A DNA stretch of 64,000 nucleotides from an uncultured Microthrixaceae bacterium (lineage in GTDB: Bacteria; Actinomycetota; Acidimicrobiia; Acidimicrobiales; CAVOFX01): assembly GCA_963695115.1 (NCBI GenBank), contig CAVOFX010000001.1, positions 28,442 to 92,441 on the forward strand. The letters run 5' to 3'. A program made the position numbers and the translations under genes. Shown here piece by piece: positions 25,784 to 28,700 of this stretch. The stretch's first letter is position 1, and the number at the start of each line of letters is the position of its first letter. Below the pieces are notes generated by a model, which saw nothing but the letters and a program-made list of their open reading frames with translations, did no database searches and was not told the origin of the DNA.

Positions 25784-28700
25784 TCAGAACCCACTGGTCA
25801 CGAGCAGATCGACATACCTACCAGCGACCTTCATCCGGAACACCGGTACCCCATGCACGCCCCAGCCGAGGCGCCACGACCCCCGAGTGATGGGATTGAG
25901 CAAACCCCCGCCAATCCTCGTATGCGTCCCCAGAGAGGGGTTCCCGAAGAGGTAACTGTCAGCGCCCAAGAAGCGACTCCGGTAGGCGGCATCCCCCAGC
26001 CGCGTCGACTGCCGGGCGAAGCCCACCCCCATGGCCAGCTCCGCGGCGATCATCGACGCCTGGCCACCTCGGTACCAGCCGGAGCACTCGTTCGCGTACT
26101 GGCTGGTGTCACTCAGCCCGAGCGCGTTGGTGGTCGCGGTGATCGGGTTGACGTCGAGCACGCCGCTCGCGAAGTCGACGACACCCTGGGTCACCTCGGG
26201 GTGCTGCTCGGCGATGCTCACACAGTCCGACCCGATGCAGTTGATACCGCCGGGAAGGTCGACCGGTAAGTCAATCGACCACAGCCCGCTGGGGTCGGTG
26301 GCGTTGAGCGGGTTGCCGTGGACGTACCCGTACGGCTCACGCGTCAACGCAGAGATCGGGTCTCTGGTGAGGAATTGGCCGGTGGTGGGGTCGTAGAACC
26401 GGGCCCTCAGGTACTGCAAGCCCGTCTCGTCGTCGGTGTACTCACCGGCGTAGCCGAACGGCGTGGCGATGCCCGAGCGCTCGGTCGGGTTGCCGTAGGG
26501 GTCGAAGGCCTGGGAGCCCACGACGTCTCCGCCCTCGTCGGTGAGCACCCGCACCGATCCGAGCTGGTCGGCGTGCAGGAACGTCACGGTGCCGTCGGGG
26601 CCGTGCTGGATGAGGGGGCTCCCGCCGGGTCCGTACACCCAGGCGGTGGTCTCGGCACCTGTCGTCTCGGTGAGAAGCGCCGGGAGCCCTGCGGTCGGGT
26701 CCCAGGTGAAGGAGGTGACCTCGCCCGAGGGTGCGGTGCGGCTGCGTCGCAGCCCGTCGCCGTCGTAGGCGTAGGACCAGGTGGCAGACAGCGGGCTGTA
26801 GTAGCCGGCGACGTCGATGGTCACATCCGCGGGGTCCTGGGTCCACACGTCGATGGCGCCTGTGTCGTCGAGGCGGGCCACCACCACGTCGTTGACGCTC
26901 TGTGCGGACTGGTAGTGAAGCGTCGCCGCAGCGGACCAGTCGCCCGGGTTTGGGTTCACCTTCGCCCAGCCCGCGCCCGAGGGGTTCTCGATCGTGACCG
27001 AGACCACGACCGCGGCTGCGCCGTCGGTGGGAACCCCTCCCAGCCCCGCGACCTGGAAGGCGACGGTCTCACCGGCACCCAGGCGGTCGCACGGCGACGG
27101 GTCGCATGTGCCCTCGCCCGTGGCGGTCTTGGCGACCCGGGCGGGTTCGAGGGGTACGAACACGGTTCCCGAGGTGCCCTCGGGTGAGGTGTGGTAGCCG
27201 ACGACGTCGATCACCACGTCGGTGGCCTTGGAGCTGTAGATCGAGATGCGCCCGTTGGCATCGAGCGCGGCGACGGTGGTGAGGTTGGTCGTCTGGCCCG
27301 AGGTGAACCCCATCACCGCGGTGCCCTCGCCACCGCCCTGGCGGTTCACCTTCACGAACCCCGTGCCCGAAGGAGAGTCCGCTGTGATGTTCACCGTGAC
27401 GGCCTCCACGCCCTGTGCGGGAAGGCCCACCTGGCCCGAGACCTGCACCTGCACCGTCTCTTGGGCCGCCAGGCGGTCACAGGGGGCGGGGACACATGTG
27501 CCGATGCCCGAGCGGGTGTCGGTGAGCCGGGCAGGGGTGATGGGCTCGAAGACCGTGGCGGAGTCGCCGTCGGGCGTGGAGTAGTAGCCCACCACCTCCA
27601 CGATCGCATCGGTGGCCTCCTTCGTCCACAGCTCCAGGTATCCGGAGCCATCGGGCATGGCCACGGCCATCGTCGAGGTCTCCTCCCCCGAGCGGTAGTG
27701 CAACAGCGCTGCCGACGCGTAGGAGTCGTCGTCGCGGTTCACCTTCGCCCACCCGGCCGCTCCCGGGTTCCACACGGTCAGGTTCACCACGACCGCCTCG
27801 ACGCCGGTGGCGGGGATGCCGCCTTGGCCGAGAACGTCGAAGCGCACCGACTCGCCCGCGGCGAGGCGGTCGCACGGCGAGGGGTCGCACGTGCCCAGCG
27901 TGTTGCGGGTGTCGAGGATCCTCGCGTTGGCAAGCGGCGTGTACTGGCCCTCGAAGCGCTCCACCTGGGGCACCGTCGCCGACACCAGTCGGTCGGCTCC
28001 GTCGTAGGCGTAGGAGGTGACGAGGCCGTTGGGGTCCACCTCGGCGGTGCGGTTGCCCGAGTCGTCGTATCCGAGCTCGGTGGCATCCGGAGGCGGAGAC
28101 CCACAGGTCCCGCTCGTGGCGGTCGGTGAGCTCCAGCACAGCTGGTTGGCAGGGTCGAAGGCCTGGATGGTGCCGTCGCCGAGGGTCACCAGGTTGTCGG
28201 CGAGGTCGTGGTCGTAGGCCGTCGCTTCACCGCTGACGCCCTCGAGCTGGGTGAGCGCGCTGTAGGTGTAGGTGCGGCTCGTATCGCCGGGCATGCTCGA
28301 CGGCGTTGTCGTCTCGAGCAGGCCGGTGTCGTCACGGGTGTAGTCGAACGACCCGAGCACCGTGGTGTCGCGCATGTAGTCGACGGAGGTGACCCGACCC
28401 ACGCGGTCGTGGCCCACCACGTCCCGATTCCCGGTCGTGGCAGGGAAGACGACCTCGGGGATGCGCCCGTTGGGATCCGGCGGGAAGTCGACCCGGTTGC
28501 CGTCCCAGTCGGTCACCGAGATCCACCGCCCGGCGTCGTCGTAGTCGCGGGTCACCGTCCCCACGTCGGGGTAGGTGATCGTGCCCACCCGCCCCGTGAG
28601 GCCGTCGTAGCCGTAACCGACCGTCTCGGCCCCACCGCCCGTGTCGGCCGAATGGGACGTGAGTCGGCCCAGCGAGTCCCACGCCCAGCTGTAGGTGTCC

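Follow-up and report, generated by a model that had tools for sequence, protein, structure and literature searches.

A predicted three-domain jelly-roll cassette in the shell of an actinobacterial Rhs protein, with a probable role in surface binding

We analysed a stretch of 64,000 nucleotides (nt) from an uncultured Microthrixaceae bacterium (Acidimicrobiales; contig CAVOFX010000001.1, positions 28,442 to 92,441), hereafter the window, which is GC-rich and carries on its minus strand an Rhs gene with three tandem units inserted in its YD-repeat shell. We consider it reasonably probable that these units form a portable, rigid three-domain jelly-roll cassette that sits in a hairpin of the Rhs shell, is displayed on the outside and binds the cell envelope. 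The three units would thus act as a single portable body rather than as independent repeats, spliced into a beta-hairpin turn of 2 to 5 residues in the last part of the shell. The cassette would lie outside the cocoon and, as suggested by its architecture and by analogy, would bind a component of the cell envelope, probably a glycan or a wall polymer. This binding would hold the Sec-exported toxin container on a surface, either the wall of the producer or the target cell.

The main Rhs open reading frame (ORF; 25784..30052, minus strand) encodes 1422 amino acids (aa), comprising YD repeats, the three-unit insert, the Rhs-associated core and a C-terminal tip. The array of units occupies aa 694-1091 (26780..27973, minus strand) between two YD repeats, and the flanking strands YAYDGADRLVSAT on the left (27974..28012, minus strand, aa 681-693) and WSYAYDGDGLRRS on the right (26741..26779, minus strand, aa 1092-1104) are those quoted in an original prediction that had been made from the letters of the window. 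That prediction had placed the three tandem repeats at 26795-27950, just inside the array; the coding strand is the minus strand, and the plus-strand translation of this interval gave no sensible protein. The units also exceed the ~120 aa that had been proposed. Unit 1 (27557..27973, aa 694-832) has 139 aa including a 10-aa N-terminal linker (VPQVERFEGQ), unit 2 (27167..27556, aa 833-962) has 130 aa and unit 3 (26780..27166, aa 963-1091) has 129 aa, all on the minus strand. Their tandem repetition was confirmed and is far beyond chance: the units match one another with E values of ~1e-30 in tblastn and share ~66% identity in DNA, and the identity to unit 1 is 44% for unit 2 and 46% for unit 3, with 40 invariant columns. 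Every one of the three units keeps a C-x4-C pair, which is read as a disulfide. Unit 3 has a degenerate LDTR motif (VAKTA), and so does unit 3 of P0003, the closest homologue of the main gene.

A word-indexed homologue search with one unit returned a single 128-aa fragment, so that an exhaustive profile search was needed. Using a hidden Markov model of the three window units, we found matches in 21,777 representatives of clusters formed at 50% identity (E<=1e-3), and in 3,519 at E<=1e-30. The unit profile is ~125-130 aa long, starts with P-A-R-x-L-D-T-R, contains G-x-G-G-V/I-P and ends with D-V-x-G-Y/W-Y/F, a pattern to which the window units conform. Pfam holds no model for this module, as judged from searches with the whole protein, with single units at E<=10 and with 29 diverse triples at E<=1. 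The same single-unit and triple searches gave no sequence match to SLH (PF00395), CWB2 (PF04122) or LysM, and the only CBM hit of the 29 triples was CBM65_1 at the chance level of E=0.2. The module is also without a model in NCBIfam, where only MXAN_0125 and bluetail appeared, both below threshold. A profile search of PDB sequences yielded no significant match, the best being a phage tail wing arm at E=0.18, and a literature search on the LLDTR motif found nothing relevant.

Most members of the family are not Rhs proteins; Rhs proteins account for ~40 of the best 150 matches. The source names are mainly those of Actinomycetota (Kitasatospora, Nocardioides, Leekyejoonella, Acidimicrobiales, Solirubrobacteraceae), and it is mostly in this phylum that the cassette is fused to enzymes and adhesins of the Sec-secreted type, of which there are hundreds of different ones. 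The fusion partners in non-Rhs matches include RCC1, TIG, VanY/M15 and arylsulfotransferase domains as well as CAP, GH114, GH26, GH12, NPCBM, trypsin, subtilase, YkuD, GDSL lipase, PKD and fn3. The expectation that the module would also occur in actinobacterial wall-associated proteins was therefore borne out by the many secreted or wall-associated matches in the profile search. We also observed that in the non-Rhs proteins P0004, P0006 and P0028 one or two triples occur alongside an RCC1 propeller, the kind of domain that other relatives have at the Rhs hairpin in place of the triple.

The units come in threes. Most of the best 150 of the 21,777 matches have exactly three matched stretches, with 6 or 9 in some, and 158 of the 175 module proteins in hand have exactly 3 units, again with 6 and 9 also occurring; outside the Rhs set this tally is biased, since ranking by total score favours multi-unit proteins. 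When each unit was compared across proteins, its best match held the corresponding position in 116, 104 and 89 of 157 cases for units 1, 2 and 3, respectively, against a chance expectation of about one third. Judged from these position-specific matches, the triple appears to be an old, position-differentiated unit.

To place the insert in the shell, its flanks were mapped in the 120 nearest Rhs relatives, a set that was picked by Rhs similarity and is hence unbiased for unit count. At this site 25 relatives carry the module, 62 have no insert and 31 have something else. Each of the 25 that carry it has exactly three units, and an intact relative with two units was not found. This survey, which the original prediction had itself suggested, contradicts its view that the location is unusual: the cassette in the Rhs shell is a recurrent design and no one-off, so that the alternative it had set against its own view, a module that is a common Rhs component, is in part what was found. 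SGS1 had moreover already provided a documented case of domain insertion in a YD shell (PMC9935623), and Zhang et al. had noted in 2012 that lectin domains occur within runs of RHS repeats (PMC3482391).

Relatives with an empty site read YDQANRLTxx, to which the left flank of the array aligns, then 2-5 residues (for example TA as the turn), then ATYAYNGDGLR. Once the insert is removed, the window protein can be aligned without a break to RhsP of V. parahaemolyticus (8H8A), in which the insertion site corresponds to the turn at ~residues 984-990, ~165 residues before DPxGL. Other domains occupy the same hairpin in further relatives. Pfam positions place RCC1 propellers there in P0188 and P0200, two LamG domains in P0201 and P0232, and FG-GAP repeats in P0180, and the NHL propeller of P0245 lies just before the right flank, its position at the hairpin being only probable since the mapping of the left flank is uncertain. 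The class of other inserts is not uniform, as P0224 and P0236 proved to be artefacts in which the left flank was mapped to an earlier YD repeat. In the Rhs relative P0186, the triple is found at the N-terminus (aa 126-542) with nothing at the shell hairpin, indicating that the cassette works independently of position. Taken from these alignments, the hairpin appears to be a swap point for binding domains.

We then modelled the 403-aa triple with AlphaFold2. Together with a 29-sequence alignment of triples, this gave a mean predicted local distance difference test score (pLDDT) of 92.7 and a predicted template modelling score (pTM) of 0.91, with 8 strands per unit; without the alignment, the pLDDT was 47 and the model unusable. 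The predicted 8-strand sandwiches and the alignments of the site agree with the original description of beta-sandwich units in a turn between YD repeats. So high a pTM over three domains means that these hold set positions relative to one another, and the units are accordingly predicted to form one rigid whole. The prediction of a separate sandwich fold speaks against the units being ordinary YD-shell strands, the outcome named beforehand as fatal to the idea of a distinct module; this candidate was ruled out by the different fold together with the occurrence of the units in non-Rhs proteins.

Comparison of the model with known structures using Foldseek gave domain-level matches of probability 1.0 in PDB to the single-chain C1q head 5hkj, the STIV triple jelly roll 4ind, CBM22 (4xup) and the C-terminal CBM-like domains of Vip3 structures. 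A comparison with BFVD brought up BclA-C-terminal and C1q-like proteins as well as picornavirus capsid polyproteins, the best TMq being 0.44. Like the C1q, TNF and BclA-C-terminal heads and the CBM sandwiches, the cassette is thus modelled as 8-strand jelly-roll-like sandwiches, with three copies forming one body. It differs from them in that whole-body TM-scores are 0.18-0.25 against PDB, including C1q and the triple jelly roll, and at most 0.44 against BFVD, so that its packing is not demonstrably C1q/TNF-like. Sequence identity to the fold matches is 8-15%, and Pfam gave no C1q, TNF or CBM matches. The model therefore suggests, at most, a fold-level relation to the C1q/TNF/BclA/CBM sandwiches.

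Several observations point to a location of the cassette outside the cocoon. A body of ~42 kDa is too large to share the cavity with the toxin. This size, the high pTM and the precedent of inserted domains together suggest an external position, and the C-x4-C pair and the signal-peptide-like N-terminus of the protein were counted for an extracellular location. The notion of the units as cargo inside the cavity was rejected on their size, on their autonomous occurrence and, by analogy, on the precedent of other YD shells. Indeed, the documented inserted domains of YD shells are all external, as in SGS1 (PMC9935623). In this mosquito protein (PDB 8FJP), a CBM, a lectin-CRD, beta-propeller 2 and wedge domains are inserted in the Rhs/YD shell; as here, sandwich or propeller segments interrupt the YD-repeat sequence, and those of SGS1 lie outside the shell as putative receptor domains (PMC9935623). 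In SGS1, the stretch that aligns with the Rhs core of the window protein is residues 2612-2746. SGS1 differs in its domain families and insertion points and has single sandwiches instead of a fixed triple, and in the bacterial clade one specific hairpin is reused for alternative domains.

WapA-type toxins of B. subtilis and S. suis and bacterial teneurin-like proteins resemble the window protein in combining a Sec signal and Rhs/YD repeats with a wall- or surface-binding region and a polymorphic tip (PMC12704120, PMC13018210). In these proteins, known families supply the binding region (LysM, S-layer or wall-binding domains), which sits at the N-terminus, whereas here an unrelated module lies within the shell, an arrangement to which P0186 with its N-terminal triple is the exception. 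The TcB beta-propeller of Tc toxins and the NHL domain of teneurin are likewise non-YD domains on or in a YD cocoon, similar to the RCC1, FG-GAP and probably NHL domains of the relatives. Both occupy shell positions other than the window hairpin. The propeller of TcB serves to close the cocoon and to dock to TcA, a role for which we found no evidence in the case of the cassette.

By analogy with these systems, a surface-displayed binding role is the most likely reading of the cassette. Some points weigh against it. The module is not related in sequence to SLH, CWB2, LysM or any CBM family, and its function is argued from architecture and analogy; the low whole-triple TM-scores and the bias of the unit tally outside the Rhs set count on the same side. 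In addition, two frameshifts in the main gene and damage in all of its orphan fragments, described below, mean that the locus may be non-functional or the assembly unreliable here.

What the cassette might bind was considered in the light of its partners. SLH and CWB2 act as obligate triples in which all three motifs are needed (PMC8056022), and as a sub-case of surface binding the triple could be their actinobacterial counterpart, which would bind a secondary wall polymer or peptidoglycan and keep the Rhs cocoon and many exoenzymes on the surface of the producer. We regard this as possible rather than probable. The likeness lies in three tandem, non-redundant motifs that form one unit and occur on many secreted or surface proteins within a phylum, and the partners of the cassette (CAP, YkuD, VanY/M15, proteases, glycosidases) mirror those of the SLH and CWB2 families (PMC8056022). 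Gram-positive Rhs/WapA and teneurin-like proteins also have wall-binding regions (PMC12704120, PMC13018210), and the family is very abundant and mostly confined to one phylum. However, the cassette shows neither a sequence nor a fold relation to SLH, CWB2 or LysM: SLH is helical and CWB2 toprim-like, in contrast to the predicted jelly-roll sandwich, and wall binding would hold here by analogy. Moreover, the alternative hairpin inserts (RCC1, NHL, FG-GAP, LamG) are generic ligand binders and no known wall anchors. The presence of such different binding domains at one hairpin in close relatives is what would be expected of diversifying recognition, and is consistent with the triple being a lectin-like receptor-binding head for competitor envelopes and the hairpin a site of specificity swapping. 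The receptor domains of SGS1 and teneurin decorate YD shells (PMC9935623), RHS-embedded lectin domains were proposed by Zhang et al. to improve the contact made with target cells (PMC3482391), and C1q-like and CBM-like domains are among the fold matches. Yet the attachment of the cassette to proteases, glycosidases and peptidoglycan enzymes argues for general retention or substrate binding and not for toxin targeting, and the units are conserved, not hypervariable, between the main gene and the orphans (92-100% DNA identity), which makes target recognition by the triple rather doubtful. The insertion site is only ~165 residues from the cleavage motif, and the propellers of TcB and SGS1 do handle cargo (PMC9935623); an insert near the core that plugs the shell could accordingly serve as a gate, a strut or a trigger of toxin release. 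Such a mechanical or regulatory role seems highly improbable, given that about half of the nearest relatives (62 of 120) have no insert there, that P0186 carries its triple at the N-terminus instead, and that most family members are not Rhs proteins at all. Returning to surface binding, we would tentatively extend it to a broader proposal in two parts: a very large and so far unrecognised family of single-chain, pseudo-trimeric jelly-roll heads may be a general envelope-binding handle of Actinomycetota, a counterpart of the SLH and CWB2 triples, and the hairpin of the Rhs clade may be a plug-in socket that exchanges this handle or RCC1, NHL, FG-GAP and LamG domains to set the docking site.

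The remainder of the main gene has the parts expected of an Rhs protein. Its YD shell has multiple repeats, matching RHS_repeat (PF05593) in Pfam over 8 stretches (E=1.2e-50) and TIGR01643 (YD_repeat_2x) in NCBIfam (E=1.7e-35). The final stretch of the shell together with the Rhs-associated core (26267..26740, minus strand, aa 1105-1262) aligns to residues 992-1151 of 8H8A; the core matches TIGR03696 (E=1.2e-21) at aa 1183-1257 and is followed by DPSGLW, a DPxGL motif, ahead of the tip. The variable C-terminal tip (25784..26266, minus strand, aa 1263-1422 plus the stop codon) has ~160 aa and no family match in Pfam or NCBIfam, and is shared only with P0104. The C-terminal end of the protein aligns to the ends of 8H8A, 7Q97 and 8CP6. 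Upstream, an N-terminal ORF of the gene (30219..31778, minus strand) encodes 519 aa with a DUF6531 domain and an N-terminus, MRVLRALGVGVVLCLLAGLLAVAPVGA, that reads by eye as signal-peptide-like.

An intact frame from the export signal to the tip is not present in the main gene. Alignment to P0003 follows one frame to ~30360, a second over 30300-30040 and a third from 30022 onward. The main Rhs gene thus consists of three reading frames. Its two frameshifts, one near 30300-30360 and the other near 30022-30040, fall after the DUF6531 region and before the YD shell, and both are upstream of the three-unit array. On this evidence it may be either a pseudogene or an assembly error at the frameshifts. 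The density of frameshifts in all Rhs copies of the window suggests a degenerating locus or an unreliable assembly in paralogous regions.

Four minus-strand fragments in the window share homology with the 3' part of the main gene and represent downstream orphan core-end/tip cassettes, an arrangement typical of Rhs loci. The fragment at 644..2573 consists of a YD flank, unit 1 joined straight to unit 3, the core end and a tip; its unit 1-to-unit 3 junction lies at 1943-1958, where a 2-nt deletion causes a frameshift, and its tip is 70% identical to that of the main gene. The fragment at 3480..5161 contains the middle and last units, as originally described, but also most of unit 1, its homology beginning inside unit 1 at aa 722 of the main protein, and then the core end. 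It shares 92-100% DNA identity with the main gene across the array and has an in-frame stop in unit 1 and a frameshift near 3854 that breaks the core end. The fragment at 6443..7438 starts in the tail of unit 1, which is joined straight to unit 3 (junction at 7328-7345), and ends in a different tip; it has a 2-nt deletion inside unit 3 and single-base deletions upstream of the junction and in the core. The fourth piece (13937..14488), located ~6.5 kb from the other orphans, holds the last ~47 aa of the core and a tip that is 44% identical to the main tip, with no units. Related tips thus recur in the locus, at 644-2573 and at 13937-14488. Every orphan carries at least one frameshift or stop.

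DNA alignment of the units with the orphan junctions, another step that had been recommended, revealed two unit 1-to-unit 3 fusions whose crossover points differ by ~20 nt. These fusions may reflect either two separate events or one event followed by conversion. Orphans and main gene share 92-100% DNA identity inside the array, with some 270-nt tracts at 100%, and 69-90% further downstream, so the array behaves as the recombination arm of the orphans. The cassette would accordingly provide an upstream homology arm for tip exchange. The two-unit orphans appear to be real products of unequal recombination, as had been predicted for these joins; what the prediction had missed is that both contain 2-nt deletions that shift the frame.

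The original prediction went further in proposing that the number of units is functionally variable and that tip exchange with an orphan tunes the domain count. Two orphans with fusions from two different crossovers are in line with this idea, and the high identity of the array makes recombination there likely. Nevertheless, none of the 25 insert-bearing Rhs relatives deviates from three units, and the units are position-specific, a pattern shown by the main gene and not by the orphans at 644-2573 and 6443-7438. Of these two fusions, one has its 2-nt deletion at the junction and the other inside unit 3, and the triple is predicted to be one rigid body. Together, the lack of an intact two-unit relative, the non-interchangeable units, the one-body prediction and the frameshifted two-unit orphans led us to read the variation as decay and not as tuning of domain number, which we consider quite improbable. 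An adaptive change of copy number is unsupported. The two-unit forms would instead be by-products of unequal crossover in silent, decaying cassettes and not functional variants, and exchange with an orphan could proceed via core-end homology and leave the array unchanged.

Mobile-element genes lie at 15299-24693, between the main Rhs gene and the orphan cluster. They comprise a Toprim/DnaG-type primase (21469-24693, minus strand), a tyrosine integrase in the C-terminal part of 18975-21377 (minus strand), an IS3-like transposase ORF named from its translation (20274-21212, plus strand) and a TrwC relaxase with a RecD-like helicase (15299-17596, minus strand). An integrated conjugative or mobilisable element may thus have separated the main gene from the orphans. 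The orphan region also contains insertion sequences, with ISL3-family transposase domains in ORF 8679-10436 (plus strand) and a DDE_Tnp_1 transposase in ORF 11354-12436 (minus strand). Directly downstream of the main Rhs tip, a 79-aa ORF (25541-25780, minus strand) is by its position a candidate immunity protein. Between the primase gene and the tip, a 165-aa ORF (24699-25196, plus strand) has a stretch, IKQLRKEHGWSQAELGERLGTDSQRVSRYENERITPSIDMLVRLAQ, that resembles an XRE-type helix-turn-helix by eye. On the other side, just upstream of the Rhs gene and divergent from it, an N6/N4 DNA methyltransferase is encoded at 31566-33461 (plus strand; PF01555, E=3e-37). ORF 32381-34654 overlaps the methyltransferase ORF; its C-terminal half looks real and has no family match.

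It was already known that domains can be inserted into YD shells and that polymorphic toxins can carry adhesion domains. What appears to be new is a very large cassette family without a Pfam or NCBIfam match, its obligate three-unit form and a single reusable insertion hairpin in a clade of Rhs proteins. At the locus itself, the differences in copy number look like decay products and not like a regulatory trick. How Sec-exported Rhs toxins of Gram-positive bacteria and Actinomycetota are retained on the surface and make contact with targets is poorly understood, and the plug-in hairpin offers a concrete handle on this question, since one can exchange or remove its domains and then follow localisation or target range. 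Beyond Rhs proteins, more than 20,000 cluster representatives without a Pfam or NCBIfam model constitute an annotation gap among the secreted proteins of Actinomycetota, and a profile together with a binding assay would annotate thousands of "hypothetical" exoproteins.

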